In this document: one piece after another, positions 1,171 through 24,313 of the stretch
How positions within the stretch are numbered: position 1 is the stretch's first letter
How the letters are laid out: each line of letters begins with the position of its first letter
Notes under the pieces: model-generated
What the model saw: only the letters and a program-made list of their open reading frames with translations
What the model was told of the DNA's origin: nothing
The model's database searches: none
Program-made: the position numbers and the translations under genes
Source of the DNA: a virus
Lineage: Duplodnaviria > Caudoviricetes
Virus record (IMG/VR): IMGVR_UViG_3300043772_001134
Coordinates: 1-26,706 of that record
Strand: one strand, 5' to 3'
DNA length: 26,706 nucleotides

Positions 1171-1388
1171 GCGATGACGCCTTGTATGCCGGAGGTTTCC
1201 CAGCCACGTTCCTTGGCAGCCTCAATAATTGCGACGCAATAGGCACGTTTCTGATGAATCGCCGGATTGAAGGCGTTGCGCACGATCTCCAACTCCGATT
1301 GGGCATCTGGGGGCAGGCGATCAAACCACGTGCGAAAGCCGGGCCTGCCATGCGCCGCACGAGACATCACGTCATCCAGCAGGCTCAT
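1146..1388 (-). CDS. Hypothetical 80-aa protein, possibly helical/HTH-like
   Basis: TGATG coupling with the upstream zincin gene at 1386-1390; overlaps the phosphoesterase start by 25 nt. Function unsupported. Confidence 0.7.
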   Translation of the reverse strand: MSLLDDVMSRAAHGRPGFRTWFDRLPPDAQSELEIVRNAFNPAIHQKRAYCVAIIEAAKERGWETSGIQGVIAWLNARPS

Positions 1389-1666
1389 CAGTCCTCCTGG
1401 TCGTCAGGCCGGCGGAATCCTTCGGCATCGATCACGCCCGAAAGCGTCTCGGCAAACTCCGCTACTGCGTCTTCGTGGAGATCCGGCCACCGGGCGTGAA
1501 TCAGTTCGTGTATCAGCGTATCTAGCAGGTCAACGCCAACCAGCTTGTCGGCAATGCGGATGGTGCGAGTCGTGTAGTTGCACTGGCCATCATCGTGACG
1601 CAGCCGCACGCGCTCAACTTTCCAGCGTTGATCGCCCACGTAGACGGTGCGTCGCTTCCGTGCCAT
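1388..1666 (-). CDS. Minimal zincin (SprT-like/phage metallopeptidase-like) protein
   Basis: DTLIHELIHARW contains HExxH, preceded by G-Q-C-x-Y-x-x-R-T-I-R-I and followed by HEDAV, a typical mini-zincin layout. Confidence 0.8.
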   Translation of the reverse strand: MARKRRTVYVGDQRWKVERVRLRHDDGQCNYTTRTIRIADKLVGVDLLDTLIHELIHARWPDLHEDAVAEFAETLSGVIDAEGFRRPDDQED

Positions 1667-10085: not shown

Positions 10086-10439
10086 CTAGCGGAGCCCCTC
10101 TTTCGTCATCCTGGCTTCAATCGTGTAGGTCACCACGCCGTCAATCGGGCACGATTCAGAAACGCCAGTGACAACCGCCGGGAACGACCAGCCGCCCGTG
10201 CCGCCAGACACTGTCAGTTCCGTGCCATTCTGCAGGGACGTTATGAAACTGCTGGCGGCGTCGTCGTTCACCTCAATGGACACTGATGCGTCATAGCCGG
10301 TCGAATAGACGGACGAATAGCGGCTACCAAACTCGTTGATTTCAATGGTGCGGGCCGACTCAGTGAACGTCACGCTGCGAACGCCGGCCACTTGTCCGTC
10401 AACGTCCACCGTGCAGTCTTTGCCGAGCGTGATTGCCAA
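10086..10439 (-). CDS. Tail tube-like protein, paralog 3 (TTG start)
   Basis: Starts MAITLGKD; has C-terminal PIDGVVTYTI; AAGGAG Shine-Dalgarno lies within the end of paralog 2. Confidence 0.75.
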   Translation of the reverse strand: MAITLGKDCTVDVDGQVAGVRSVTFTESARTIEINEFGSRYSSVYSTGYDASVSIEVNDDAASSFITSLQNGTELTVSGGTGGWSFPAVVTGVSESCPIDGVVTYTIEARMTKEGLR

Positions 10440-10442
10440 GTA

Positions 10443-10760
10443 TCAGAACTCCTTGGCAGTCACCGAAAACGTCACGGCGCCGTCAACTCCGATGTTCTCC
10501 GTGACGCTCATGACCTTCCAACCGCTACTGGCGTTCGCCTGAAGGTCAGTAATCAAACCGGTCGCGTCGTGGCACTCAATCTCCCACGTCTTCGTGGTGA
10601 ACCCTGCCGTGGACATCTTGTAGCCCGGCGCCCCGGTGCTGCCGCCGATGTTGTCTCGGTTGCTGATGTCGATCGTTTCGCACTCCTCGGTGTAGGTGGC
10701 AGAAATGATGTTCGTGCCAACCGGAGGCGCTGTCTGGTCCTTGCCGAGAGTGATGGCCAT
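10443..10760 (-). CDS. Tail tube-like protein, paralog 2
   Basis: Starts MAITLGKD; has ETIDIS and GVDGAVTFSV; TAAGGA Shine-Dalgarno. Confidence 0.75.
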   Translation of the reverse strand: MAITLGKDQTAPPVGTNIISATYTEECETIDISNRDNIGGSTGAPGYKMSTAGFTTKTWEIECHDATGLITDLQANASSGWKVMSVTENIGVDGAVTFSVTAKEF

Positions 10761-10799
10761 GTGCTGTCCTTAGTGTGTGGGTGCGTGTGTGTGTGCTTG

Positions 10800-11117
10800 T
10801 CAGTCGGCAACGGTGCGAGAGCCGGAAACCGTGAACGTCACAATGCCGTCAAGCGGCTCTGACTGGGCAACGCTTGTGCAGATGTAGTCTGCGTTTCCCG
10901 TCTCGGTGCCAGTGATCGTGAACACGTCGCCAGCCTCGACGCCGGGATCGTCAACGCATTCAACCTCAATCGTCTGCTCGATCAGCGCCTTGCGGTACTT
11001 GCGCGACGAATCGCCAAGCTTGGTAACGTCCACTTCCGATGCGCTGGACGTGACGGTGCAAGACCGAGCGTTGGAAACGCCGGCAATCGTCACGTCTTTG
11101 CCGAGAGTAATGGCCAT
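10800..11117 (-). CDS. Tail tube-like protein, paralog 1
   Basis: Starts MAITLGKD; has SEVDVTKLGD and PLDGIVTFTVSG, reminiscent of siphovirus tube proteins. AAGGAG Shine-Dalgarno; occupies the major tail protein position. Confidence 0.78.
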   Translation of the reverse strand: MAITLGKDVTIAGVSNARSCTVTSSASEVDVTKLGDSSRKYRKALIEQTIEVECVDDPGVEAGDVFTITGTETGNADYICTSVAQSEPLDGIVTFTVSGSRTVAD

Positions 11118-11144
11118 GTGTGCTCCTTGGGCGGGTGTGCTTGC

Positions 11145-11184
11145 AGATTAGGGCCAGCACAGCAAAGCGGCGTAGGGGGTGTGG
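11145..11184 (-). promoter_or_regulatory. Putative late promoter: CCACACCCCCT-N23-TAATCT
   Basis: The 11-mer (11174-11184) is identical to 24560-24570, with the same 23-nt spacing to a TAnnnT box (11145-11150). Intergenic, upstream of the tube genes. Confidence 0.65.
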
Positions 11185-11991
11185 CTAGCCTGTTTTCCGC
11201 AGAGCGTTCCGCCACTTTTCGTTCGCTTTGGCAACGGCCTTTTGCACAAGCCGAGCGCCCTGCATGAACGGGCGGGCCGGATAGCGGGCCGTCTTCACAA
11301 TCGTGGTGGCTTCCCAGTTGCGGGAATGCCGTGGCTTTTTGTTGGTCCAGACAAGCAGCCCGTAGTCAAACTGATTCCGTTGCGGGCCGAGGCTTGTGCC
11401 TTTCGTGAATCTTCCTGACGCATCGCGCCCGGCCCCGCTTCGACCGGCAGACCTTCGCAGATAAGCATTTCGTGCGGCGCCAACGCCAGTGCGCCACGCA
11501 CGCAGCCGCAGCGTTCCGCCAAACTCATGCAGCTTGTTGAGCCACGGCGCCTTGGCGGCCCCGATCACTGCCGTCTTGCGGCTGGTGTCGAAATAGTCTT
11601 TTATGTCTGCGTAGGTGAACCGCTTCGGCCCCCACGATTTGATTGGACTGCCGGCAGACCGCGGCTTCCCGCTGTTCACCATCGTCAAATCTTTGTATAG
11701 GCCACCGACAAACTCAACGATGGCCCCGGAATTGACCGCGCGCTTGCCAGCCTTTGTTTTCGCTGGTGGCTTTTGGCCAATGCCCTTCTTTGCAGCCTCT
11801 TTGATATTCAGCCCGGCCTTTATCAGACACGTCTGGTTAGTGGCATCCAGCATCCGGCGAACATGGGCGCGGTCGAAAAACCCGCTTTTGATCTTGAAGT
11901 TCAACGCCAACTTCAGATCAGTGGCGGCAGACCGTGACCGGCGGTTGCCGCCAATCTGGCCAGGTCTAATCCATGCACGGCTAGCACGCAT
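11185..11991 (-). CDS. Tail completion/neck protein (HK97 gp10-like), highly basic
   Basis: Arg/Lys-rich, with LHEFGG and C-terminal YPARPFMQ motifs typical of this family; lies next to the terminator and tube genes. Confidence 0.7.
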   Translation of the reverse strand: MRASRAWIRPGQIGGNRRSRSAATDLKLALNFKIKSGFFDRAHVRRMLDATNQTCLIKAGLNIKEAAKKGIGQKPPAKTKAGKRAVNSGAIVEFVGGLYKDLTMVNSGKPRSAGSPIKSWGPKRFTYADIKDYFDTSRKTAVIGAAKAPWLNKLHEFGGTLRLRAWRTGVGAARNAYLRRSAGRSGAGRDASGRFTKGTSLGPQRNQFDYGLLVWTNKKPRHSRNWEATTIVKTARYPARPFMQGARLVQKAVAKANEKWRNALRKTG

Positions 11992-11997
11992 GTGCGT

Positions 11998-12456
11998 TCA
12001 CTCCGGCAGGTCGTCGCTTTCAAGGACGCGATAGGTGGCAACAATCGCCGCCCGCCAAACGTTTCGTTCACTCAGCGCATCGTCTGGGTTTAGGTCGATC
12101 GTGACCGTCTGCGGGCTCGTCACGCCCTCTGGCCAGTCCTCGATATCATCAAACTGGTGGGCCTTCACCTGGCGGAAAATGTCGTTTGCCAAATCAAGCA
12201 TCCCGTCAACGTCTTGATCGGTCGTGACGTGTCTGCCAACGAACACCTGCACGTCATAGTCCACCTGCGTCTGCCGGCGTCCGATTCGGGTCACGTCAGC
12301 GGACCCAGGCGTGACGTAGACCACCGGATTGGCCATCGACTCCACGTCGATGCTGACCCAGTTCTTTCGTTCCACGGTCGTGGACTGAATCGCCCACGTG
12401 ACGCCATCCAGGCTAGTGGCTAGCGCGTCGGCAATCTGCCGCAGATAACTACTCAC
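11998..12456 (-). CDS. Tail terminator-like protein (152 aa)
   Basis: Start re-called to GTG at 12456 (GTGA overlap with the GT2 stop, AGGAGG upstream). Sequence pattern IADALA...VYVTP...YDVQVFV...LDLANDI; synteny. Confidence 0.7.
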   Translation of the reverse strand: MSSYLRQIADALATSLDGVTWAIQSTTVERKNWVSIDVESMANPVVYVTPGSADVTRIGRRQTQVDYDVQVFVGRHVTTDQDVDGMLDLANDIFRQVKAHQFDDIEDWPEGVTSPQTVTIDLNPDDALSERNVWRAAIVATYRVLESDDLPE

Positions 12457-13508
12457 GCCGCGCCTCCTAGCGTCTGTTCCATGGCCGCCACGTTTGAGCG
12501 CAGGCGGGCGTCTTCCGGCCATCTTGCCAGAGCCTGCCGGGCGAACGTGAGTGCCTCTGGACGCCTCCCAAGCTCCCACAGGGCAACCGCCAGCAGGTCC
12601 ATGGCGCGAGTGCGTGCCAGCGGGTCGCTGCAATGCGTGCCGATATTTTCACAGGCAACTGCCCGTTCAGCACACGCAACAACCTTTGCCCATTCACGCT
12701 GCCTGTATGCCAAGAACGCCAGCCGCTCCCACGCTTCTGGCTCGTCTGGCGCTTCTGCCGTGGCCTGCACTAGATAGGCAGGATCGCCGGTTAGCTTCCA
12801 CAAGATGCGGCAGGCGAATGCGCGTTCTGTCGCTATGCCGCCGTCCATCTGCAAATACCGCTCAAAGGCTTCCCGTGCCTCTGGCATCCCGGCGTAGTCC
12901 ATTTCGCGTGCTAGATACCACTGCGCCCGTGCGTCGTGCGGAGCCTCGCGCACGGCGATTCGCAACAACTCTAGGTCGGTCGTGTGCTTTTTCCCCTTGT
13001 CTCGAAAGTGGAAAATCTGCAAGTCAGTAATCATTTTTGACCGCTTCTCGCCATGCCAGCAGATCAACCCTTCGTGCGTCGGTGCTGACCAGCGAAACCC
13101 ACGGCGCGAGTGGATGCGGTCCGCAATGAACACTAAGTCTTCCGTGCCATCGGAAGCCCATGACCAAACGTATTTGTAGAACAGTTGATTTGTGCCGTCC
13201 GTCCATTCCCGTTCAATCACGTCCCGCCAGCCCGGCGACAGCCGCTCATCTAGGTCCAGTCGGATGCACACATCTAGGTCAGACGGCAGGTGGTAGAGCG
13301 ACAGATTGTGGGCATCGTCCCACCGCCACGGCACGACGTTGCCGGTGGCCACCGTCACGCCAGACTGCCGCAGCCTGTCAACCGTGGAATCGGTGGAGCC
13401 AGTGTCGGTGACAACTCGCACGTCGGCTTCGTCACACGAATGCGACCAGTCAAAGACGTGCTTTTCTTCGTTGCGGGCCAGCGCGTAAACGCCGATTTTC
13501 AGACTCAT
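12453..13508 (-). CDS. Glycosyltransferase family 2 with C-terminal TPR repeats
   Basis: KIGVYALARNEE...VVTDTGSTDST, DxD motif (RLDLDE), THE motif, then TPR-like helices (ARAQWYLARE, PEAWERLAFLAY). Confidence 0.92.
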   Translation of the reverse strand: MSLKIGVYALARNEEKHVFDWSHSCDEADVRVVTDTGSTDSTVDRLRQSGVTVATGNVVPWRWDDAHNLSLYHLPSDLDVCIRLDLDERLSPGWRDVIEREWTDGTNQLFYKYVWSWASDGTEDLVFIADRIHSRRGFRWSAPTHEGLICWHGEKRSKMITDLQIFHFRDKGKKHTTDLELLRIAVREAPHDARAQWYLAREMDYAGMPEAREAFERYLQMDGGIATERAFACRILWKLTGDPAYLVQATAEAPDEPEAWERLAFLAYRQREWAKVVACAERAVACENIGTHCSDPLARTRAMDLLAVALWELGRRPEALTFARQALARWPEDARLRSNVAAMEQTLGGAA

Positions 13509-14044
13509 AGGATCAGTGCCGATTGCCGCAGGCCATCGTCGGTGAACGTGGCCCGCCTGTTCCTGCTAGCGCAGAAGTCTTCGACGGCCCGGCGCACGCT
13601 GGCGTTGTCGCAATCATCCGCCAGGATCGCCGGAACGTCAGCGACCAAGTGCAGATCCGCCAGGGCGCCGGCGTAGGAATGATCGCCGTCCACGTGCGCG
13701 AAGTCCGCAGGCGGCAACTCCGTTACACCTCGAGTGTCGGCCCGCAGCAGCTGGGCATTGATTCGCCATTCAGCCACGATCCGCTGCCAGTGGTCCATGC
13801 ACTGCGGCGAATCAGCGTCTAGCCAGCCGTCCACGCACAGCCATCGCGTGCCAGGGCTTGCCAGATGGAAAGCCAGGAGCGAGTACCCGCAGCGGGTTCC
13901 GATCTCAATGCCGGTCTTAGGCTGGATCGCTGCAACGGCGTCAGCCTTGTGCTGGTAGTGCCGCAGCGACCGTGCGTCCAGCGCAAACCAGTCGTTTGGC
14001 ATCCACGATTTCGCCAGTGCGTCAGCTATCTGCTGGTGCAGCAT
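13505..14044 (-). CDS. Class I SAM-dependent methyltransferase (Methyltransf_24-like)
   Basis: IEIGTRCGYS motif I and DFAHVDGDHSY...ADL...LADD. ATG at 14044 preferred over TTG at 14050. Confidence 0.88.
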   Translation of the reverse strand: MLHQQIADALAKSWMPNDWFALDARSLRHYQHKADAVAAIQPKTGIEIGTRCGYSLLAFHLASPGTRWLCVDGWLDADSPQCMDHWQRIVAEWRINAQLLRADTRGVTELPPADFAHVDGDHSYAGALADLHLVADVPAILADDCDNASVRRAVEDFCASRNRRATFTDDGLRQSALIL

Positions 14045-15095
14045 CCGCAAGCATCCCTTCCACGGCGCCGGCGTCTAGGCCCACAAGCCACGCTTCCGCG
14101 TCACGCACGCCAAACGACGCCACTACGCTGCTGCCGGTGATCGCAAGACCAGCGGCGAACTCAATCGCCTGCCGCTCCCGAAACACAAACGGCAGCGACC
14201 ACCGCTTGAGCGTTAGCGAATTGTCCAGCCACACCCAGCGGTGTTCGTAGACCCTGTGGCCGCCGTGCGCCACTTCGTGGATCAGCCCGAGCCATCCGCC
14301 ACGGAATTCCACCAGCTGCGAGCCGCCGCGGAACTGGCTGGCAATGTGCGGCGCCTGCGACCGGCGGTGCATCAGATACGCACCAGCAAGCGACGGGTCA
14401 GCGTCCACTGTGACCGTGTGGCCGGCGTGATTGACGGCGTAGACCCAACCATCAGATCCCTGAAGCGGCATCCAGTTTTTTTCGTGCTGCTGCAGCGACA
14501 GGCAGTCCAGCATTCGCAGGCCTGTGAACTCGGCACGGTCAACGTCCAGATCGGCAATCCCAATCCGGCAGTCGCCGTTGAGCGGCGCCGCATCGCGGAC
14601 CGTGGCGGAAACACCTATACCCGTTTGGGTATGCCTCAGCCTGCAATCCTCGAGCCCCTCAACCGGATACTCGGTCCGGTGGTATTCTGGCCCGGCTATC
14701 GGCCGACAGTCTGCCACGGTCAGATCGGGCCGCAGGCGAACCAGAAGGTTCTGCGTGCGTATCCGGTCGCCGTCTTCTGCTGGCATCACATAGGCGCCAT
14801 CAACGATGCGGTAGTTGCTGGAACGGACAACGGCCACCAGGCCGCCAGCGTCTGCAATCGTCGGATTGAACGCAGACCACCCGTCATGCGCCGGCTCAAC
14901 GTCAAGCCGAACGAAACGGCACCCAGCCAGTTCCTCCAGCGGCTGCGTGTAAAACGTGCGGTTCACCCTGGTCTGCATTTCCATTTCCTGCGGCAGACCG
15001 GGCAGAGACAGCAGCCGTTCGCACGACCGGCGGCCGGCGTCCAATTCGCCTGCGTAGAAGGCGTGGACGCTCAATGCCGCTAGGTGCTGGATCAT
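14022..15095 (-). CDS. GH43/DUF377(GH130)-like five-bladed beta-propeller glyco-enzyme with an N-terminal TPR-like helix
   Basis: Motifs AFNPTI, GLEDCRL, EKNWMP, RGGSQ, LIHEV, YEHRW, IEFAAGL, SFGVRD. Confidence 0.75.
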   Translation of the reverse strand: MIQHLAALSVHAFYAGELDAGRRSCERLLSLPGLPQEMEMQTRVNRTFYTQPLEELAGCRFVRLDVEPAHDGWSAFNPTIADAGGLVAVVRSSNYRIVDGAYVMPAEDGDRIRTQNLLVRLRPDLTVADCRPIAGPEYHRTEYPVEGLEDCRLRHTQTGIGVSATVRDAAPLNGDCRIGIADLDVDRAEFTGLRMLDCLSLQQHEKNWMPLQGSDGWVYAVNHAGHTVTVDADPSLAGAYLMHRRSQAPHIASQFRGGSQLVEFRGGWLGLIHEVAHGGHRVYEHRWVWLDNSLTLKRWSLPFVFRERQAIEFAAGLAITGSSVVASFGVRDAEAWLVGLDAGAVEGMLADAAPADS

Positions 15096-16525
15096 GGCGT
15101 GAAGGTCAAAACGATGTCATTGCCAGAGTCGGACAGCGACCACGTGCCGCCATCCAAATCGTTGTTGTTCGTGAACTCGCTGGCGTCGATCGTGAACTTG
15201 TTGGATGCGAACCCTGCCAGCGTACCGGCCGTGGCAATCGTGAACGACTTCGATGTTGTGTTGTCAAAGTTGGGAACGGCACCGGAGACGTTGCCGGAAG
15301 TCAGCCCAACCAGTTTGATCGTGAACGTGCTGCCGCTGGTGGCCGTGATCGACAGGTCATCGCCTGACACAACCAGCTGGGCAAAGCCGCTGCCGGCAGA
15401 ACCCGTCCAGTTGTTGATTTGCCAGCGATAGGCGCCGCCACTGGCAAGCGTTAGGCCGGCTGAAAACGCTTGCGACCCAACAGGATCGCCGGGCGAAAGC
15501 GTGGCATTCGCGCCAGCTGTGACGGCCGAGGCAATTTCGCCGGAACCGGAAATCGTCCCGCTTGTGAGCGTCACAGGCGAAGCCAAGGCAATGGAACCTG
15601 TGTGCTTGAGAACTGCACCGGCGCCATTGATCACCACGGCCGCGGCAGTTGGAATGTCACCGCTGCTGCCGTCTATTTGCAGCGTCCCATAATTGACCGT
15701 TACCGTTCCGGTCGTTGACACGTCCCGTGTCAGCCTGACAGTGCCAGTGCTGCCAGACGATCCAACGGCAATGTCCACGTCTGGGTAGCCGTCGCCTGTG
15801 TAGTTGTTCCACACAGCGTCAAAGACAACCGTGCCGCCGGCAGCTGCCTGGAGCGTCACGTTGCGGCCTACGAGAATAAATGACGATGACGACCCGACCG
15901 TTGCGGTTCCTGACGTGCTTTCTCCACCGATCACGACGGCCTGGCTCGAACCCGCCCCGCCTGCTGGAATCTGAATCCATTTGGTGAGCGTCACGCCTGC
16001 GGCAACCAGCAGCGCAGCAGTACCGGATGCACCAGCAGAATCATCGCCAAGAATGACTGCGGACGACTGCGCGCCAAATGCGCCTGAACTCGGCAGCGTG
16101 TTTGCTCCCACAGCAATCGTCCCATCAAGGATTGACGTTGAGCCGCTGTAGGTGCTGGAGCCCGTTAGCCGCCACTTGCCTGCCCCTGACTTCACAAAAG
16201 AAATCGGGTTTGCCAGCGGCGCGATGCCAGCAAACGAATTTCCTGCCGTGCTGCTTCCACTAAGCGTCAGCGTTTTGGCGCCGCTGCCTGTGGCAGTCAT
16301 TTGCGCCGTCAGGACCAGTGCGCCAGAGCCAGAAGCATCCAGCGTGGCGCCGCCACTGGTGCCTGCCATGTTGAACACACGGGACGTGGTGTGACCGCTG
16401 CCGGTGTAAAGCACGGTTGCCGAGCGGCTGGCGCTGCCGACGTTGATCGTGGCTCCGTCGCTGCCGTCAAAAGCTATAGAGGCAGGAACGACAAACCGGC
16501 TGAACAGACCGGCCTTGCCTCTCAT
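15092..16525 (-). CDS. Autotransporter-associated beta-strand repeat (PATR) protein
   Basis: [28 protein letters not shown] repeat, TLSPG motif, Gly/Ser/Thr-rich beta-helix composition. Confidence 0.8.
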
Positions 16526-17271
16526 GCGTCAACGTCTCCAACCAGCAGCCACGTGTCAGCTGCATAGAGGATCACCGTCCCTGCGGAATACTGATCGCGC
16601 AGCTTTGTGCCAGGCGTGGCGTTGACGGTCACGCCAGTTGCACCAGTTACCTGAACGGCGCCGACTCCAATTCTGGCAATGTCAACGTGCGTGCCGGTCG
16701 GAAAATCAACGTCAGCAGATGCCGGCACGATGACTTCGACAGGACCGGTGGCAACGTCTACGGTCACCAAACGTCCGGCGTCGGCAAACGCCAGCGTGTA
16801 ACCTGTGGTCTGTGCGTTGATGGTCTGAGGAAGACCGAATCCGCCCGTAGGGCCGGTCACTGCAGGCCCCGTAGGCCCCTGCCTGCCCGTGGCTCCGGTC
16901 ACTGATCTGCCCGTTGGCCCGGTGCTTCCTTGCGGACCCGTCACCGCAGACGCAGGCCCCGTTGCCCCCGTGCTTCCCTGCGGGCCGGTAACAGTCGATG
17001 CAGGCCCTGTGCTGCCAGTAGCACCCGTGCTTCCCTGCGGCCCCGATGGGCCGGTAACAGTCGATGCTGGCCCCGTTATGCCCGTAGGGCCAGTAGGGCC
17101 GGATGACACATCTACCGGCGATCCCCAGCCGGTAACAGCATCCTTGGGACCGTAAAGCGACTTTCCGGTTTTGTCTAGGTAGATGTCACCAACGTTTCCG
17201 ATGCCGCCCGTCGGCGCACCGTTGCCGGCGAGAACAGGCGATCCACCAGTTGGCAGCGAATAGAAAGGCAT
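16522..17271 (-). CDS. Collagen-like fibre protein (249 aa)
   Basis: Central interrupted G-X-T repeats ([18 protein letters not shown]...), N-terminal GAP...GDIYLD...LYGPK domain and a globular C-terminal domain. Confidence 0.85.
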
Positions 17272-17280
17272 GGATGAATC

Positions 17281-17562
17281 CTAGACGTTGTTATTGGGAA
17301 CCGGCTGTGTCTCTGGTGGCACGAACTCGCCGTCGGGTCCGCGCGTCGGGTCGAACGTGTAGCCGATGCCGGCGTACGTGCCGCGGTATGGCGTGCCGCC
17401 GTACAGGTGAACGCCCGATCTCGTGTTATACGAGGTCCTGCGACAGGTCAGGTTGCGGACGCTCGCGTAATACGCCTCCCAGTCGGTGTCCTCGCATTCG
17501 TCTTTTCCAGCGATGACCTCGACAACGACGTTCTGTTCGTCAAGAAAAGCGTAGTGTGCCAT
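17281..17562 (-). CDS. Hypothetical virion-associated protein (MAHYAFLDEQNVVVEVI..., 93 aa)
   Basis: Start re-called to ATG 17562, just after the previous stop. YRGTYAGIGYTFD motif of the small proteins I recall following Gly-rich phage genes. Confidence 0.7.
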   Translation of the reverse strand: MAHYAFLDEQNVVVEVIAGKDECEDTDWEAYYASVRNLTCRRTSYNTRSGVHLYGGTPYRGTYAGIGYTFDPTRGPDGEFVPPETQPVPNNNV

Positions 17563-17564
17563 TG

Positions 17565-18404
17565 TCAGCTCCACGAGACCGTATCGGTGCCAGCCGTGAT
17601 CGTGACGGTCGTCAGTCCGCCGCTGGTGGCCGTGCTGCTCGTCAGGCCGGCGCCGATCGTGATCCGCAACGCAGAGTTGAACCTAATGACGACGATTCCT
17701 GATCCGCCCGCAGCGCCGGCTTGAAAGCCGCTCGTCGCCCCGCCACCGCCTCCGCCACCGCCGGTGTTGGCGGTCCCTGCCGTGGCCTGCGTTGTGCTGG
17801 CGGCTCCGTTGCCGCCGCCGCCGCTGCCGCCGGTTGACGTGGTAGACAAACCGTTCGCGTTGCCGCCGCCGCCGCCGCCGGCGTAAGTCACGCCGTCGAA
17901 GGCCGTCTTCCCGGCGCCTCCGTTCCCCGGCGCTCCCGGCGACGAGTTTGCGGCGACTCCGACAGCGCCGGCGCCACCTCCGCCGCCGCCCCTGGCGACG
18001 TTGCTGGCGTTGTTCCCGTTACCACCAGAGTTGCCCTGCGGCGATGCGATCGACGCCGCGGCGGCCGTCAACGAGTTGCTCCCGCCGCAGCCAGACCCGC
18101 CGACAGAGGCTGACAGATTGGTCTGCCCGCCGCCGCCGCCAACAGGAACGATGCCGTCGAACCGAGAATGAGATCCTCGCGAATTGACAGCGCCGCCTGC
18201 GCCGACTGTCACGCTGTACGAGGTGTTCAGCGTGATCCCGAGCGTCTGCTCGAGGAATCCTCCACCGCCGCCGCCACCGCCGGAGCCCGACGCGGTATGG
18301 CCGCCGCCGCCGCCAGCGACGACGAGGACTTGGACGCTTCGCGAAATCTGCTCGCGGATGTCGCTGCGGCTGGCGAGCGAGTTTCCGGCCGTGCGGATCG
18401 ACAT
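17565..18404 (-). CDS. Glycine-rich fibre-associated protein (279 aa)
   Basis: Start re-called to ATG 18404 (TGATG overlap). VLVVAGGGGG...YAGGGGG...ANTGGGGGG...GGSGIVVIR is the phage glycine-rich domain pattern. Confidence 0.85.
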   Translation of the reverse strand: MSIRTAGNSLASRSDIREQISRSVQVLVVAGGGGGHTASGSGGGGGGGGFLEQTLGITLNTSYSVTVGAGGAVNSRGSHSRFDGIVPVGGGGGQTNLSASVGGSGCGGSNSLTAAAASIASPQGNSGGNGNNASNVARGGGGGGAGAVGVAANSSPGAPGNGGAGKTAFDGVTYAGGGGGGNANGLSTTSTGGSGGGGNGAASTTQATAGTANTGGGGGGGGATSGFQAGAAGGSGIVVIRFNSALRITIGAGLTSSTATSGGLTTVTITAGTDTVSWS

Positions 18405-18733
18405 CAGGTGATCTCGGTGCCGAAGAGGGAGAAGGCGAGGTTTCCGTTCCCGGCGTAGACCGTCACGACATCGGTCGTCGCGAGCGAAAGGCCGAGCGTG
18501 AGGATGGTCGTATCGTTGGCGGGAATTGAAACGTCGTAGGCCAGATACATAGCGTTTGTCTGCGATGCTCCCGCGGGCCTCGCGCTTACCCTGTACGTTG
18601 TGGCCGTCGCGCCGATGTTGGCGATCGTCAGCGAGGACACGACGGCGGACGTTGAGCTCGGCACCGTGTAGAGCGTCGTCGCCGTAGTGGCCGACGGGTT
18701 GGCCTGTCCTAAGACTTTGTAGGCGGCTGGCAT
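18404..18733 (-). CDS. Small beta-sandwich virion protein (109 aa)
   Basis: Clean coupled ORF (YKVLGQ...TLYTVP...FSLFGTEIT) inside the fibre cassette; function by context. Confidence 0.7.
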   Translation of the reverse strand: MPAAYKVLGQANPSATTATTLYTVPSSTSAVVSSLTIANIGATATTYRVSARPAGASQTNAMYLAYDVSIPANDTTILTLGLSLATTDVVTVYAGNGNLAFSLFGTEIT

Positions 18734-18736
18734 TTG

Positions 18737-19801
18737 TCACATCCCTGCAATAAGGAACGGGTGGAAAAACACAGAAACGGCCGCCTGGGCGTTGGCACTG
18801 AGCCGCGCATCAGCGAGCGTGCCGCTGGTCAAATCTGATGCCGATGAAGATCCGCCGCCACCACCGCTTCCGGCTGGACCGGTTGGCCCAGTCACGCCTT
18901 GACCGCCAGCGGAGCCTGGGCTGCCCGTTGGCCCCGTCACGGTGGACGCTGGGCCTGTCGCTCCCGTTGGACCCGTCACCGTCGAAGCGTCACCAACCGA
19001 ACCAGTCGCGCCGGTTGGCCCAGTAACAGTGGATGCAGCGCCCGCCGCGCCAGTTGCGCCCGTAGGCCCGGTTACGTTAGAGGCCGCACCGGCGGCACCC
19101 GAAGGGCCTGTCGGTCCCGTGACCGTGGAGGCAGCGCCGGCGCTGCCGGTGGGTCCGGTTGCGCCGGAAGACGGTGACGCGGGCGCCCACGCAGTCCCAT
19201 TCCACGCCGCTACCTGGCCGGTCGTTGCGGAAGACTGCGTCAGCGCACTGAGCGGATGCGTATGGCTTAGGGGTGACCGGGAATCACTTAAGCGCGAGTC
19301 ATTCCCACGGCAGGCTGTGCCAGTCGTGGTCCCGTAATTGACAGTGATTTTTCCGTTTGAAAAAAAGTCGAGCCCCGTTCCAACGATGACGCCGCCGAGG
19401 TTGTCGCCATCCGCTTTTGGCAATACGTAGGCTTCTGGAATCGTCGGCTTATTGCTTAGATCGTTGTACGAATTGGACGTTGCTACCGCTGCAAGCGCCG
19501 CAGTGTCCGGCGGAAAGACCGATGGCTTTCCCGTGATGTCGGCCCAGTCAGCAACACTGGCAACGGTGAATTCTGCCCACGTCGTTAGGTCGCCGCCTAA
19601 CTGGTAGACCGTGTCTGCCGCCGTCACATAAACCAGCATCCCGGCTTCCCGCCTGGCGGACGGGATCGCATCGCGCTCCGTCGTGTCGGCAACCGTGCGG
19701 AAACCACCCTTGCCGTACTTCGCTTCATGTGAAGCATGGGTGTCCGTCGTGTCAAACGGCACCACTGGCCCGATGACGTTTGTCCCTTTGATCTCGCTCA
19801 C
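18737..19801 (-). CDS. Collagen-like fibre protein (354 aa)
   Basis: N-terminal [23 protein letters not shown] domain, WADITGKP and SYNDLSNKP fibre repeats, then (GPTGxxGxxGxASTVT)n. Confidence 0.85.
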
Positions 19802-20487
19802 GACACGACCACCTTTGCATTGCCGGTGATGGCGTAGGTCGAACGGTAGATCGTGTAGCTTGCGGCCGCCTGCGACGGGAACGTGATTGATCTAGTGGTG
19901 GATTCCCACGCAGAGGTGTACAGCCCGTTGACCGTGAACGACGCAGCGCCGAACGACGCCGGCAGAACGAAATAGATGTGCTGGCTAGCAGGCGTGAGCG
20001 TTCGAGCCTGCCCGTTGGCGCCAGCCAAGTCGCTCGAGAACAGGGAAACGATCTGCTGGTCGGTCACGGTCGCCAAAGCCGAAACGCCCCAGTAGCGTTG
20101 CTTGAGCGTTGGCAGCGCCGCGGAACTCTTGTCGGTGGCGATCGTGTGGACCCGCACGCAATTGCGGAACGGGTCGGCATACCGGAACACCGGCATCCCC
20201 GAAGGGCTAGTCACCTCATAGGTCAGGTCCACGCCGTCGATCGTCTCAACGATCGTGTCGTGCCGCAGCGGTTCGCCAAACGGCAATTCGGATGCCTTAA
20301 CGATGAAGTCCCGAGACTGCCAGATTTCAACGACGCCGGATTGCGATGCCGCCTCAAACGTCGAACTGCCGACGGTGGCACGCACCTGGGCAAAACTGTT
20401 TCCCCGGTGGTAGGTGCAGAGGCTGGCCGCAGAATCCGCCAGCCGATTGGCTAGCCACGCCGCGCCGGTCTGGAGAAGGTCGGACAC
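19798..20487 (-). CDS. Head-closure/head-tail joining protein with an extra C-terminal domain
   Basis: The N-terminal ~115 aa (SRDFIV...[11 protein letters not shown]...YEV...RVHT) fit a gpFII-like stopper at the expected position; ~110 additional aa follow. Confidence 0.7.
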
Positions 20488-20501
20488 GAAGCACCTTAGT
20501 G

Positions 20502-20551
20502 CGCAATGCCCCCGAGCCGCGCGGCGAGCGCAGCGGCTACGGGGGCTTGCG
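20502..20551 (-). terminator. Imperfect GC-rich stem-loop after the DUF2190 gene
   Basis: Arms CGCAA-GCCCCCG-AGCCGC and GCGGCT-CGGGGGC-TTGCG. No U-tract, so a terminator role is uncertain. Confidence 0.45.
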
Positions 20552-20562
20552 TGGGATCGAAA

Positions 20563-20880
20563 CTAGCGGTTGATCAGCACGTGCACGCTGGTATCGCCAA
20601 CCACGCGGGCCTTTGCCAGCTTGCCGGCGGCAACGCCGGTCGAAGCGTGGGCAACGCCCGAAATGGCGTACCAGTTGATGGCCGAACCCTGCGCGCCGGT
20701 AGCACCGGTCGCACACGGCATCTCGAACACGCCATCAACAGCCAGAGCGCCAAGCGCTCCAGCGGCGATCGGGCGCGGAGCAACCGCGACCATCGCGCCG
20801 ATCACGACCACGTCACCAACCGCAACAGCAGCGGCCGGCGTGTGGTCAAGCAGGCAACCGTCAGCAACATAAGAAGCCAT
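20563..20880 (-). CDS. DUF2190 family capsid decoration/cement protein (105 aa)
   Basis: Start re-called to ATG 20880 (GAGG upstream). LDHTPAAAVAVGDVVVIG...VAVAPRPIAAGALGALAVDGVFEMP; directly follows the capsid gene. Confidence 0.88.
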   Translation of the reverse strand: MASYVADGCLLDHTPAAAVAVGDVVVIGAMVAVAPRPIAAGALGALAVDGVFEMPCATGATGAQGSAINWYAISGVAHASTGVAAGKLAKARVVGDTSVHVLINR

Positions 20881-20919
20881 TAGAAAACCTCGCAGGAAAA
20901 AGTGTTTGTGGATAGTCAG

Positions 20920-20953
20920 GTTGCCGGGCGGGCTTTGGCTCCCGCCCGGCAAC
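20920..20953 (-). terminator. Perfect 13-bp stem-loop after the capsid gene
   Basis: GTTGCCGGGCGGG-8 nt-CCCGCCCGGCAAC; no adjacent U-tract. Confidence 0.55.
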
Positions 20954-20972
20954 TCCGGTTGAACTCTGTGGA

Positions 20973-22808
20973 CTACACGTCCATCTTGACGCCGGCGAGG
21001 TACTCGGCCTTGGCCACGCCAAAGTCGAAGTAACCACGCATCTGCACGCCGAGCGTGTTGAAGTCGGCTTCCGCCGTCTCCACGATCGGGCTTTGCACGC
21101 CGTTAAGGAACGCCACTTCCATCACCGGCAGGTCAGCCGGCGAGGCAAGCAGGTAGTAGTCGGCCGCGTTCGTCAGGTAGGCCGAGCCGACCACCTGATA
21201 CCGACCGGCGAACACGTTCGTAGACGGCTGGCCACCCGTGGCACCGCTCTGGATCAGAGCGGAACCCATGATCTCGGCCGCGGTGATCTCCAGTTCCGGC
21301 GGAACCACCAGCACGCTGGGACGAACCGCGATGGGGTTGCCATCGGGATCAACCAGCTTGCGGAACAGGTTGACCGCTTCCTTCAGACCGGCGATCGACA
21401 ACGCCGTGGCGCTCGTCTTCTTGTTGCCACGGGCCGTGGTGAAGAAGGACGAATCGTCAAGGAACGCAGCCCAGAACACGTCGTTGAGCTTCAACGCACC
21501 GCCACGGCCGATCCGCTGCGGAACAGCGGTCAGGGCGCCGAGGTCGTCGTTGATGAGGTCCGTGCGGGTCACGCTCGTCATGATGCCGTAGGTGTCGGCA
21601 CTGATCGTCCGCGACTCGTCAGAAGCGGCAGCGTTCTTGAGTTCGCCGCCGTTGGCGACTTGCTGGAACTTGAAGCCGCCGTTCAGCCGGTAGCTGGTCA
21701 CGCTCTTGAAGTCGTTGACCGAGCGCACCGCCGAAATCGACCGCCACGAAGATTCCACGCCGTCGAAGCCGGCAAGGAGGAACTTGTTGACGGTGCTGGA
21801 CAGGATGCCGGCAATCGAGTGGGTAGCCCACGCAGCCGCCAGAATCGGACGCAGCGTCGAAGCGGTCAGGCGGCGCGGGCCGTCATAACCGTTGGCCTCC
21901 GCGGCCGCCAGCAGCACTTCACCCAGCGTCGTGCTCCGCTGCACCTTGGCAGCGGCCTCGAGCGTCTGGGCGCTGTACGCCTTCTCGACGTTGGGCAGTC
22001 CGCCCTGGAGGGCAAAGGACGCCTCAATCACTTCCGCCGTGGGGGCGGTCTTCGTCGCAACGTGGACGGCCGGCGGAACCGGGCGTTCGTCACGGGTCGC
22101 GTTCAACTGCTGCATGGCTTCGACTTTCTGGGTAAGGATTTCGATCTGGGCCTTGAGTCCGTTGGCCTCGCTGGCTTCGACCTTGGGGGCCTCCACGGCG
22201 GCGCTCGCCGTGGCTTCCACCGCAGCAGCCACAACGGGCTCCTCGGCAGGCGTCTGGTTGGCGTTATCCGCCATGGTGATCTCCTCGTCGGCTTCCGCCG
22301 CGATGGCGACGCTTGTCTCCGCGTCAGCGCCAAGGGTGACAAAAGAAACCTCACGGAGACTGGAGGCTTTGACGATTCGGACCGGACCCAGATGGGTCTG
22401 CCCGTTGACGGTCGTGGCGGCTTCGGCGTCCACTTTTTGATGGCGGCGCACATCGGCGCCCACGCTGGCCTGCCACTGGTATCCACGCTCTGCCAGCGCC
22501 AGCACCTGGCGGGCCGTATCGCTGTCGGCCAAGATCTCGCCTTCAACGATCAATTTGCCGGCTTCCACTCGGACGCTGTCGGTCTGCCCAAGGATGGAAC
22601 CGAGGTTGTAGTCGTGACCCAAGACGATCGGCAGTTTCTGCTTGAACGACATTCCGGCCAGATCGATCACGACAGGCTCACGGCTCCAGCCCTGACGGAT
22701 CTGCGAACCCGTATAGGCTTCGATCGAAAACCGCTTTGGCGCTGCGGCAGCATCGCCATCAGCGGCCGTCAGGAACGTCACGCGAGTATCCAAAGAGATT
22801 TTGTTCAT
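20973..22808 (-). CDS. Fused prohead protease-scaffold-major capsid protein (Mu gpT-like capsid domain)
   Basis: N-terminal AYTG...PIVLGHD...WQASVGA...LREVSFVTLGAD protease motifs, an acidic Ala-rich linker, then a capsid domain (RSVNDFK, LINDDLGAL, LVVPPELE, EVAFLNG...FDFG). Confidence 0.92.
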   Translation of the reverse strand: MNKISLDTRVTFLTAADGDAAAAPKRFSIEAYTGSQIRQGWSREPVVIDLAGMSFKQKLPIVLGHDYNLGSILGQTDSVRVEAGKLIVEGEILADSDTARQVLALAERGYQWQASVGADVRRHQKVDAEAATTVNGQTHLGPVRIVKASSLREVSFVTLGADAETSVAIAAEADEEITMADNANQTPAEEPVVAAAVEATASAAVEAPKVEASEANGLKAQIEILTQKVEAMQQLNATRDERPVPPAVHVATKTAPTAEVIEASFALQGGLPNVEKAYSAQTLEAAAKVQRSTTLGEVLLAAAEANGYDGPRRLTASTLRPILAAAWATHSIAGILSSTVNKFLLAGFDGVESSWRSISAVRSVNDFKSVTSYRLNGGFKFQQVANGGELKNAAASDESRTISADTYGIMTSVTRTDLINDDLGALTAVPQRIGRGGALKLNDVFWAAFLDDSSFFTTARGNKKTSATALSIAGLKEAVNLFRKLVDPDGNPIAVRPSVLVVPPELEITAAEIMGSALIQSGATGGQPSTNVFAGRYQVVGSAYLTNAADYYLLASPADLPVMEVAFLNGVQSPIVETAEADFNTLGVQMRGYFDFGVAKAEYLAGVKMDV

Positions 22809-22868
22809 TCAGCCAAACTCCCAGACGGTGTCGATGTCGTCCGCATCGTGATCGCCAACCCAAGTCAT
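22809..22868 (-). CDS. 19-aa acidic micro-ORF (MTWVGDHDADDIDTVWEFG)
   Basis: Its ATG overlaps the portal stop (ATGA) and its TGA abuts the capsid ATG; it fills the gap exactly. Confidence 0.5.
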   Translation of the reverse strand: MTWVGDHDADDIDTVWEFG

Positions 22869-24313
22869 GCGTCGGCCCCCTGCGGCCTACCGTTTTCGTC
22901 CAGCGTGCCGCCGTAGTTCGTTTCGGGCGTGAAGTCCACGAACAAGCCAAGTTCCTGCATCAGCGCGACTTCCGCCGCACGTTGCCGCAGTTCTTGATCC
23001 CACTGCTTGCCTTGCTTGGCGTATTCAGCCGCCAGCGTGGTGGTGTGCGTGCGCAGCCGCGTTTCAGACGCAGTGGCTTCCTTGGCAGGGTCAACGTGGT
23101 CTTTGCCGTCCCACTGCCACGACCAGTTCCATTCGCTGAACGGCGGCAACGCGCCGGGCAGCACGCCGGCAAGGCTGGCTTCGTTGACCCAAGCCGCAAG
23201 CAGACGGTCAAGCAGGACACGCTCTAGCTGGTCGCGGTCCACTCGCTCGTGCATCCCGGCAATCTGCCAGTCCATGCGGCTGGATGCGTAGTTGTATTCA
23301 CTCGAGTTGAGCGCTGCGACGTTAAACGGAATCTGCAGGCAGCGGGCGATCTCGTTGAGGATCTGCTTGACGAACGCCGGGTATTGCGTCGTGGGCTGTT
23401 CCGCCCGCAGTTGGCTGATGTCCCAGCCTTCCGGCAGCGTGACCATGCTGCGCTTTTCGATGGGCATTTCAGCAAACGCAGTGACTTCGTCCACCTCGGC
23501 GGCAGGCGAATTGCTGTGCAGGAACGCAGCGAAATCGGCGGCCGTCTCGGCAGCCGCCAGCACGGCATCGGTGTAGCGCCGCAGCTGACCGAACAGCCGC
23601 AGGGCAGGGGCCACCTCCGGTACGCCACGGTGTTGGCCAGGCCGTTGGGCGCGGAACCAATGCACCATCTGATTGGCCGGCACACGCTGGAACTGCAGGT
23701 TGTTGACGCGGTAGTTGCTGCCGGGATGAAAGTTCAGCACTTGGTAGGCGATGACGTTTCCAATCGCGTCGAATTCCATGCCGTCAACGATGTTGCCTTC
23801 GGGCGTGATCGTCTGCGACATCAACTCAGTCGGCGTGGCGACCATTTCCGCCTCGACAAGACGAACGTCGAGTTGCACGCCCGGCAGGCGAGGATTGGAA
23901 ATCATCAGCGCGAACGCTTCGCCATCGACCACGAGCGCCTCGCGCATCGTCCGCAGTTTGGCCGGCAGGTCGATTGACCACGACCAGTCGTAGAACGCAC
24001 GCTCTATGGCCCGATCGCTTTCGGCATCGCCGGTATCCAACTGCAGGCGCGGGCCGGTGCCGATCAGACTGGCCGCCACACTGCCGGAAATGCCCGCCAA
24101 CCAAGAGTTGTTTTGCCGCTCGTAACGGGCGCGGTTCCGCAGCGTCCGCCTGACGTTTGGCGACAGGGCAGCGTCCGCAGCAAATGCGTCAGCCGCAGCC
24201 CAGTGCCGATAGTCGTCGCCCTTCTCGGCAGCGTCGAACTTTGCACGGACACGCACGGGCATCGGCTGCGCTGCCGGCTTCGACTTTGCCCAGAGGTTGC
24301 CGAACAGGCCCAT
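22865..24313 (-). CDS. Portal protein, lambda family
   Basis: LRNRARYE..NN, IGTGPRLQ, DGEAF, RPGQHRGVP, NYASSR and HVDPAKE motifs. Confidence 0.95.
   Translation of the reverse strand: MGLFGNLWAKSKPAAQPMPVRVRAKFDAAEKGDDYRHWAAADAFAADAALSPNVRRTLRNRARYERQNNSWLAGISGSVAASLIGTGPRLQLDTGDAESDRAIERAFYDWSWSIDLPAKLRTMREALVVDGEAFALMISNPRLPGVQLDVRLVEAEMVATPTELMSQTITPEGNIVDGMEFDAIGNVIAYQVLNFHPGSNYRVNNLQFQRVPANQMVHWFRAQRPGQHRGVPEVAPALRLFGQLRRYTDAVLAAAETAADFAAFLHSNSPAAEVDEVTAFAEMPIEKRSMVTLPEGWDISQLRAEQPTTQYPAFVKQILNEIARCLQIPFNVAALNSSEYNYASSRMDWQIAGMHERVDRDQLERVLLDRLLAAWVNEASLAGVLPGALPPFSEWNWSWQWDGKDHVDPAKEATASETRLRTHTTTLAAEYAKQGKQWDQELRQRAAEVALMQELGLFVDFTPETNYGGTLDENGRPQGADA

Follow-up and report, generated by a model that had tools for sequence, protein, structure and literature searches.

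A putative threonine O-glycosylation cassette for virion proteins in the neck module of an uncultured tailed phage

The window analysed here is a stretch of 26,706 nt of a tailed phage (Caudoviricetes; IMG/VR record IMGVR_UViG_3300043772_001134), and all of its genes lie on the minus strand. Nine ORFs were found between the head-closure gene (20487-19798) and a conserved gene for a 152-aa protein (12456-11998). In order from head closure, they encode proteins of 354, 109, 279, 97, 249, 477, 357, 181 and 351 aa. The intergenic gaps within this insert range from -29 to +9 nt, which bears out the nine tightly coupled genes described in an earlier note on this DNA. A consensus scan over positions 11000-23000 returned one promoter-like site (1.8 expected) and four terminator-like sites (11 expected). 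The annotated features are as follows:

20566..20883, minus strand: capsid cement (decoration) protein with two loops, one A-T-G-A-T-G and the other x-x-T-G (PF09956, phrog_122)
19798..20487, minus strand: head-closure protein (PF25138, residues 2-119, E 1e-25) with a C-terminal extension of ~105 aa
18737..19801, minus strand: 354-aa fibre-like protein with interrupted GPT/GAT repeats (PHROG tail fibre/virion structural matches)
18404..18733, minus strand: 109-aa small structural-type protein (phrog_1276; weak match to tail fibre phrog_693)
17565..18404, minus strand: 279-aa glycine-rich domain protein (PF21722)
17281..17574, minus strand: 97-aa protein (phrog_7759)
16522..17271, minus strand: 249-aa protein with GPT/GAT/GST repeats (C-terminal domain phrog_8780, minor tail protein)
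15092..16525, minus strand: 477-aa protein with an autotransporter passenger repeat (PF12951, TIGR02601)
14022..15095, minus strand: 357-aa beta-propeller of the GH130 fold with an N-terminal helical remnant (fold model and Foldseek)
13505..14050, minus strand: 181-aa SAM-dependent methyltransferase (PF13578, E 3.7e-9)
12453..13508, minus strand: 351-aa GT-A + TPR glycosyltransferase (phrog_13126, E 2.6e-78, plus TPR)
11998..12456, minus strand: conserved gene for a 152-aa protein, the right border of the insert (tail terminator by position only)

Of the two borders proposed earlier, the head-closure gene was confirmed by its PF25138 domain, while the "tail terminator" label has position behind it: the 152-aa protein matched nothing in Pfam or PHROG, and its gene was present in 79 of 80 loci selected by the glycosyltransferase (GT). 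Used as a search bait, the head-closure protein recovered 8 close relatives only. The 477-aa protein is likely an adhesin and belongs to the accessory genes, occurring in 4/27 enzyme-bearing inserts; the 279-aa protein may serve as a receptor-binding module.

The 354- and 249-aa proteins had been described as collagen-like and rich in GPT/GAT triplets. G-x-T-G motifs are indeed far more frequent than expected (12 and 14, respectively, against means of 1.2 and 1.5 and maxima of 5 and 6 in 2000 residue shuffles). The 354-aa protein contains GPTGATG itself, and the 249-aa protein has G-x-T-G-A-T-G runs closely resembling it. However, neither protein matched Pfam Collagen, and spacers such as ASTVT interrupt the repeats. 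Gly-X-Y runs reach at most 5 triplets in the 249-aa protein and, counting its terminal poly-Gly, 9 in the 354-aa protein. Since these runs are short and interrupted, the triple-helical "collagen whiskers" suggested earlier are doubtful in the window phage; across relatives, the number of Gly-X-Y triplets ranges from 4 to 210. A tandem-repeat scan of the 249-aa gene gave only one 48-nt two-copy unit and short GC runs, and so the repeats exist at the protein level and not as a DNA array. The head-closure extension and the N-terminal domain of the 354-aa fibre tend to occur together (n = 43: both in 20, neither in 21, the extension only in 2, the fibre domain only in 0). This co-occurrence makes the extension a possible docking site for the fibre.

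The GT had been read as an SgtA-like GT2-TPR initiator, and the fold search agrees with this. The top six PDB matches of the GT model in Foldseek are the ThuS/SunS peptide glycosyltransferases (E 7.5e-15, TM 0.63), the identity to SunS, ThuS and GmaR being 14-16%. An N-terminal GT-A fold with a DxD motif is followed by TPR, and TPR_14 was detected in 77 of 113 homologues. The motifs DTxSxD, DLDER and THEG are invariant, as is D85-L-D87 in the 113 sequences, none of which matches PF00535 at E<=0.01. The GT profile (A2) matches GmaR weakly (E 0.007), and the profile of a GT2-TPR-propeller fusion, described below, matches SunS at 2e-24 and GmaR at 1e-21. Direct sequence searches of the GT and the propeller against the PDB gave nothing useful. 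One PDB match entitled "SGTA PROTEIN", covering the TPR part only, is presumably an unrelated eukaryotic co-chaperone. A tblastn search with the GT against 50,697 phage records returned 8 matches, none of them a mycobacteriophage. The GT is predicted to be an initiating protein O-glycosyltransferase.

In vitro, SgtA of Clostridioides difficile attaches sugar to Thr within GPTGATG peptides (PMC7157674, in excerpt). It shares with the phage GT (358 vs 351 aa) the GT-A fold with C-terminal TPR and the position beside a gene for a GPT/GAT-repeat protein (BclA3), and the acceptor motif matches. In the same excerpt, the authors report that they could not find the enzyme extending the SgtA product. 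There are differences: the acceptor belongs to a spore in the one case and a phage virion in the other, the likeness of the GT is one of layout, and in the phage the GT is joined by an enzyme of the GH130 fold and by tailoring enzymes that can be swapped, while the repeats are interrupted. The cassette would work like SgtA/BclA3, as a form of phage virion glycosylation. The best structural and profile matches, SunS, ThuS and GmaR, differ in another respect, as no glycocin precursor or flagellin gene lies near the phage GT; GmaR consists of a GT domain and TPR and adds GlcNAc to flagellin (PMC9638930, in excerpt). Phage glycosyltransferases are also known to glycosylate DNA (PMC12619734, in excerpt), but an anti-restriction role of this kind is hardly probable for the window phage. 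Its GT fold matches peptide GTs and its genes lie within a structural block; in a near-identical complete relative (93-97% over aligned parts), no hydroxymethylase, dioxygenase or DNA polymerase match was found among 40 of the 64 ORFs of >=95 aa listed for the remainder of its genome.

The model of the propeller (pLDDT 95.5) is five-bladed and of the GH130 type. All 25 Foldseek matches listed (ranks 1-33) belong, as judged from title or family, to the GH130 type (best E 8e-11). The earlier call of a GH130-like propeller was thus borne out by fold, though without a Pfam match. The window protein does not reach the curated cut-off of PF04041 (GH130), and we therefore file it as GH130-like and not as a GH130 member. 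Within its family, 8/73 members match PF04041 at E<=0.1, and a tandem homologue (P0121) passes the cut-off (31.3 vs 26 bits). PF12141 (GT91 BMT) matched 1/73 members (E 0.002), which falls short of a GT91 assignment, with P0162 at 23.4 bits lying under the cut-off of 28.3. Residues R91, E149 and D150 are invariant and align to R47, E136 and D137 of Uhgb_MS in sub-threshold HMM segments (E 0.03-0.4); these Arg and Glu-Asp positions were tied to beta-1,2 specificity (PMC12814180, in excerpt). The phage propeller shares with Uhgb_MS, Lin0857 and Teth514_1788 (and with GT108 and GT91 by kinship) the fold and may share, on weak alignments, the catalytic Asp and the beta-1,2 determinants (R47 and E136 in Uhgb_MS). 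It differs from the GH130 enzymes in its low identity (13-16%, below Pfam thresholds), its N-terminal helical remnant and its biosynthetic gene context. The family is large, a cut-off of E<=0.001 giving 2,296 cluster representatives, and its distant phage homologues carry the depositor annotation beta-mannosyltransferase. We predict that the propeller is a beta-mannosyltransferase/phosphorylase.

Elsewhere, the GT and the propeller occur fused, as the two halves of a single GT2-TPR-propeller protein. They tile a single fused profile at positions ~3-299 and ~297-655, and the window GT aligns with the N-terminal half of the fusion (hhalign, 99.4%). Among 64 long propeller homologues, PF00535 was found in 36, a methyltransferase in 14 and both in 7; P0140 is a propeller fused to a methyltransferase (51% identity).

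It could be that the GT glycosylates the virion while the propeller does not extend the chain, acting instead as a phosphorylase or hydrolase for donor supply or trimming, or as a virion-bound cutter of host mannan. Such a role is at odds with the repeated fusion of the propeller domain to GT2, GT25, methyltransferase, sulfotransferase and HtrL domains, and with its nearest viral folds, which are parts of giant-virus glyco-enzymes. In addition, the near-invariant basic and aromatic residues K206, R256, H273 and Y283 would suit an enzyme that binds phosphate and not a hydrolase with its acidic pair. Nevertheless, all characterised top structural matches are catabolic GH130 phosphorylases or hydrolases, and their GDP-Man transferase activity is weak (PMC12814180, in excerpt). 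On balance, we regard a non-extending propeller as unlikely.

The earlier assignment of a SAM methyltransferase was correct, but its role as a fixed third step was not upheld. A methyltransferase of some kind occurs in 33 of 42 deduplicated loci, and the slot is exchangeable, being filled elsewhere by different tailoring enzymes. One such gene is called HtrL-like, a weak label, as it has no Pfam match and a pairwise E of 0.001 to the PF09612 domain. No transmembrane-like segment was detected in the GT, the propeller or the methyltransferase.

The co-occurrence of the enzymes and repeat genes proposed for checking was examined across phages, and the result supports the reading of virion glycosylation. 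The propeller was present in 47/47 GT loci with enough upstream DNA, and no propeller without a GT occurred among 187 terminator-bearing loci (duplicates included). The N-terminal domain of the 249-aa protein was found in 26/27 enzyme-bearing and 0/17 enzyme-less complete inserts, and the GPT median was 13 in the 27 against 0 in the 17. These contrasts are not independent, because on the terminator tree the enzyme-less phages trace back to 1-3 losses and on the cement tree they form one clade. The N-terminal domain of the 354-aa protein also occurs in enzyme-less phages, and we infer that the 249-aa protein, whose N-terminal domain tracks the enzymes, is the best candidate substrate. Three of the 17 enzyme-less inserts keep GAT-rich collagens with >=40 Gly-X-Y triplets (20-26 Thr at Y), and no GT2 could be detected in five enzyme-less genomes that are complete; hence, Thr-rich fibres can work without the cassette. 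Conversely, independence of the enzyme trio from Thr-rich fibres, which the earlier note regarded as contrary to its proposal, is seen in part: at locus L169 no collagen-like gene accompanies the trio, but the cement protein there carries the motif.

The cement protein has [ST]GxTG in 15 of 19 enzyme-bearing and none of 7 enzyme-less relatives, and no similar T-G excess was found in 10 other structural proteins among those listed. This co-variation suggests that the cement protein is probably a further substrate. The neck or head appendages proposed earlier thus stand as candidates in the form of the repeat proteins, but the substrates likely also include cement, which lies outside 12453..20487. 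A loop of the major capsid protein differs in 9/14 vs 0/8 relatives; this is only a lead, because the pattern was picked after the alignment had been viewed.

The pairing is not confined to relatives of the window phage. In an unrelated podovirus-like family, 34/34 complete portal-scaffold intervals carry the GT2-TPR-propeller fusion together with G-x-T-G-rich genes, in a set chosen by portal that contained no enzyme-less member. In fusion loci without a GPT-rich gene, tiny proteins with G-x-T-G tails are encoded directly upstream of the GT in 22/33 cases, and no tagged small ORF was found upstream in 11/33. Cultured phages DSL-LC01 and Tunturi_5 also have the GT/repeat pairing. Five cultured phages with a GT homologue were tested, and (GxT)2G motifs are encoded in every one of them (5-148 matches, against 0-2 in the controls, among which there was no GT-less phage); in PaBG, the motifs are found in annotated tail-fibre genes. 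PaBG, Lu11 and HRDY3 had been considered as cases of a GT without substrate and were dropped, the motifs being located elsewhere in those genomes. These data bear on the idea that the neck readily tolerates insertions and that enzymes and repeat genes are co-inherited there with no substrate relation. The small number of independent losses and the presence of DNA methyltransferase-like and other unrelated genes in the inserts are in its favour. Recurrence at the portal-scaffold site, in the two cultured phages and in the tagged tiny proteins makes it very unlikely.

In locus L171, from an Urbifossiella MAG, a GT homologue adjoins a collagen-like gene in a chromosomal-looking context, so hosts may have substrates of the GT. 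The near-identical complete relative encodes an integrase-family protein. Both observations would suit lysogenic conversion, in which the enzymes act on a glycan of the host surface or on a host glycoprotein and so block superinfection, their adjacency to the fibres being incidental. This is quite improbable, given that the genes are overlap-coupled within a structural block with no excess of promoter or terminator sites. Furthermore, the enzymes lack a membrane segment, the nearest structures act on peptides, and the presence of the enzymes goes with that of the cement motif and of the 249-aa protein.

Taking these results together, we consider it fairly probable, on sequence and fold models, that the phage cassette O-glycosylates threonines in G-x-T-G motifs of its own virion proteins. 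The earlier proposal of phage-encoded glycosylation of Thr-rich appendages survives in its core the fold, co-occurrence and fusion tests; the triple helix, the fixed methyltransferase step and the range of substrates had to be revised. We suggest the following pathway. The cassette would be expressed late and act in the cytoplasm. GT2-TPR would transfer the first sugar to Thr, with the TPR binding the Gly/Pro/Thr-rich stretch, as the fold and layout suggest. The propeller may then extend the chain by beta-linked mannose, possibly in a beta-1,2 bond, using GDP-Man or Man-1-P as donor, as its fold and the three aligned residues indicate. In the least certain step, the methyltransferase or another slot enzyme may modify or cap the chain. 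The glycan would be short, probably mannose-containing and often methylated. From co-variation, the substrates would be the 249- and 354-aa proteins, probably cement and perhaps one major-capsid loop. Such a short chain likely coats the fibres and probably the capsid.

To our knowledge, virion glycosylation has been reported for few phages. Our literature search found no description of this cassette, subscription papers and bioRxiv supplements being outside the search. In mycobacteriophages (Che8 and relatives), phage GTs put glycans on virion proteins (PMC12619734, PMC11256854, both in excerpt). The window phage would share with them the use of phage-encoded GTs for virion proteins. However, their glycans are reported on the C-termini of capsid and tail-tube proteins and their GT genes lie near the right end of the genome, whereas here the genes belong to the neck module, a GH130-fold enzyme is present and glycans would be expected at G-x-T-G motifs within the proteins. 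Mimivirus also has a virus-encoded collagen-modifying GT (L230), methylated virion fibril glycans and a predicted methyltransferase, but L230 is a different enzyme that acts on hydroxylysine in a eukaryotic host (PMC9614988, in excerpt).

More tentatively, and with rather less confidence than doubt, the cassette can be seen as a portable and widespread phage glycocalyx. GT2-TPR and a GH130-derived beta-mannosyltransferase, fused or split, would read a G-x-T-G tag grafted onto fibres, cement and small head proteins, and swappable methyl-, sulfo-, epimerase and extra GT genes would vary the glycan from one lineage to the next, like a serotype locus. If true, this would define a new viral glycosyltransferase family shared with giant viruses and a sequence rule predicting glycosylated virions. 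If the main reading given above holds, virion glycosylation would be found in two or more unrelated families of uncultured phages and also in several phages in culture (DSL-LC01, Tunturi_5, PaBG, Lu11 and HRDY3), which makes it testable at once by glycoproteomics. The propeller family, so far large but uncharacterised, would gain a function, and the Thr-rich, interrupted make-up of many phage "collagens" would be explained. The cassette would also represent a compact soluble system in which O-glycans are built on a short peptide tag.

The morphogenesis block of the window is of siphovirus type and runs on the minus strand through terminase, adaptor, lambda-type portal, protease-capsid fusion, cement (a capsid decoration protein), head closure, the insert, the terminator-position gene, three short tube-like genes and tape measure. 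The insert is filled, as the earlier note described, by nine overlap-coupled genes, among them those for a glycosyltransferase (GT), a SAM methyltransferase, a GH130-fold propeller and two Thr-rich repeat proteins of 354 and 249 aa. The virus record is 26.7 kb long; a complete relative of 45 kb (93–97% identity across aligned parts) also has genes for an integrase-family protein, RecT, a clamp and a replication initiator. Alignment of the GT against bacterial and archaeal genomes gave only three matches, all in planctomycete MAGs, one of which (locus L169) has the same phage gene order as the window; therefore, we infer a planctomycete host. Other features of the window were as follows:

20973-22808 (-), major capsid protein fused to prohead protease
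11185-11991 (-), basic 268-aa protein beyond the terminator-position gene, with identity of about 65% or about 28% in relatives, suggesting two interchangeable forms
10086-11117 (-), three consecutive paralogues (105–117 aa), each beginning MAITLGKD, one matching phrog_1407 major tail protein; they apparently form the tail tube and are conserved across the phage family
1674-5291 (-), 1205-aa protein without a Pfam or PHROG match, last in the tail block and shared only by the closest relatives
1388-1666 (-), SprT-like zinc-motif protein of 92 aa past the tail block (PF10263, below cut-off)

The two repeat proteins contained about 10 times as much G-x-T-G as the shuffled mean. Their repeat runs are short and broken, and neither protein matched Pfam Collagen. 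For them, "Thr-rich interrupted collagen-like" is a better description than "triple-helical whisker". Relatives have between 4 and 210 uninterrupted triplets. In the clade whose collagens are longest (144–210 triplets; L052, L056 and L064), the inserts carry an NAD-dependent epimerase (PF01370), hinting that the donor sugar is phage-made there. Across distinct complete inserts, the N-domain of the 354-aa protein tracks a head-closure extension rather than the enzymes, pointing to a neck anchor that does not depend on glycosylation.

The GT matched phrog_13126 and bears TPRs at its C-terminus. The structures nearest to its model (pLDDT 95.2) were ThuS and SunS, and by modelled fold it belongs with SunS/GmaR-type GTs. 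A passage of PMC7157674 reports that SgtA glycosylates Thr of GPTGATG peptides; the domain layout given there is shared with the window GT. By analogy, the cassette probably works like the SgtA/BclA3 system. In 27 of 113 GT homologues, the TPR part weakly resembles the prolyl-4-hydroxylase peptide-binding domain (best E 2e-4), a lead that it may recognise Gly/Pro-rich stretches. In an Urbifossiella MAG (L171:6941-13927), a GT homologue lies immediately downstream of the gene for a repeat protein of 859 aa containing 41 G-x-T-G; both sit among housekeeping-like genes and are possibly a chromosomal SgtA/BclA3-like pair of a planctomycete.

GH130 structures ranked first in the fold search with the propeller model (pLDDT 95.5); the protein is GH130-like and by score not a GH130 member. 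Its nearest viral models were uncharacterised phage and pithovirus proteins and domains of giant-virus glyco-enzymes. The invariant R91, E149 and D150 align to R47, E136 and D137 of Uhgb_MS. According to part of PMC12814180, R47 and E136 are beta-1,2 determinants, and all tested beta-1,2 GH130 phosphorylases have weak GDP-Man transferase activity. Since these alignments are below significance, beta-1,2-mannosylation by the propeller stays a prediction.

Among the best 150 propeller homologues, 80 were at least 530 aa long; a domain scan of 64 of these found GT2 in 36, a methyltransferase in 14, both in 7 and HtrL/YibB in 3. One homologue (P0140) is a propeller fused to a copy of the window methyltransferase (51% identity). 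In addition, the N-half of the GT2-TPR-propeller fusion aligns with the window GT (probability 99.4%), and in 5/5 complete relatives the GT and the propeller match adjoining parts of the fused profile and together tile it end to end. These fusions and the tiling indicate that GT, propeller and methyltransferase very probably serve one pathway. Other propeller homologues (P0121, P0124 and P0141) are tandem duplicates or joined to sulfotransferase and GT25 domains.

Within 80 GT-selected loci, the propeller was present in all 47 with 2.8 kb upstream, and a G-x-T-G-rich gene in all 24 complete inserts. Enzyme-less relatives were retrieved via terminator-gene searches; the fusion profile and PF00535 had no match in five complete enzyme-less genomes, with complete enzyme-bearing relatives as positive control. 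Of 44 distinct complete inserts, 27 bore the enzymes and 17 did not; the 249-aa protein's N-domain occurred in 26/27 and 0/17, respectively, and GPT medians were 13 and 0. This contrast is weakened by there being only 1–3 enzyme losses on the terminator tree (45 enzyme-bearing vs. 19 enzyme-less among 64 rows). Two observations count against the enzyme-collagen link: sizeable GAT/GPQ collagens are retained in 3/17 enzyme-less inserts, and L169 has the enzymes and lacks the collagen. In some relatives, the methyltransferase slot holds the PF13578 subtype of an unrelated, podovirus-like family or a weakly HtrL-like gene.

The fused enzyme as query retrieved 80 loci, those examined being mostly podovirus-like (SU10-type portal, phrog_267 capsid). 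A gene with at least five GPT was found in 47 of them, often with the GT less than 100 nt away; of the 33 others, 22 had a small gene upstream whose product ends in a G-x-T-G tail. In a portal-selected set, all 34 complete portal-scaffold intervals contained the fusion and tagged genes. Neighbours of the fusion included epimerases, a sulfotransferase, a sugar C-methyltransferase and PF13578 methyltransferases. Uncharacterised proteins of 60–140 aa in the portal-GT interval (L302:9691-9981, L296:2760-3275, L267:2008-2328), each consisting of a short domain and G-T-T-G/G-A-T-G tails, are candidate glycosylated head decorations. At L263:18995-19807, an N-terminal G-x-T-G stretch precedes the conserved domain of a phrog_437 virion structural protein. 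As for cultured phages, two collagens adjoin the GT in DSL-LC01 (propeller and methyltransferase lie elsewhere in the genome), GTT-rich fibres adjoin the propeller in DSL-LC02, and a GPT-rich fibre lies near a GT in Tunturi_5; in PaBG, Lu11 and HRDY3 the motif is far from the GT.

The cement protein carried [ST]GxTG in 15/19 enzyme-bearing versus 0/7 enzyme-less relatives, and T-G in its second loop in 19/19 versus 0/7; because the enzyme-less cements form one clade, this counts as one contrast. The L012 cement, which branches beside that clade, has the motif in the second loop, and that of the collagen-less L169 in the first. No comparable enzyme-linked difference was seen in ten other structural proteins. 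A capsid-fusion loop near the C-terminus was SGATGG-like in 9/14 enzyme-bearing versus 0/8 enzyme-less relatives, a pattern picked post hoc.

Stabilisation of a triple helix by glycosylated Thr has a precedent in Riftia collagen (cited in a passage of PMC10141479) and, by analogy, may hold for those relatives whose runs are long. A capsid loop and runs that are short and interrupted would more plausibly gain stiffness, resistance to proteases or control over adhesion to particles and non-host cells. The cassette is real, conserved and coherent. Phage virion glycosylation was already known in principle; this analysis adds a GH130-fold partner that is split or fused, a tailoring slot with swappable genes, controls lacking the enzymes, and the motif in cement.
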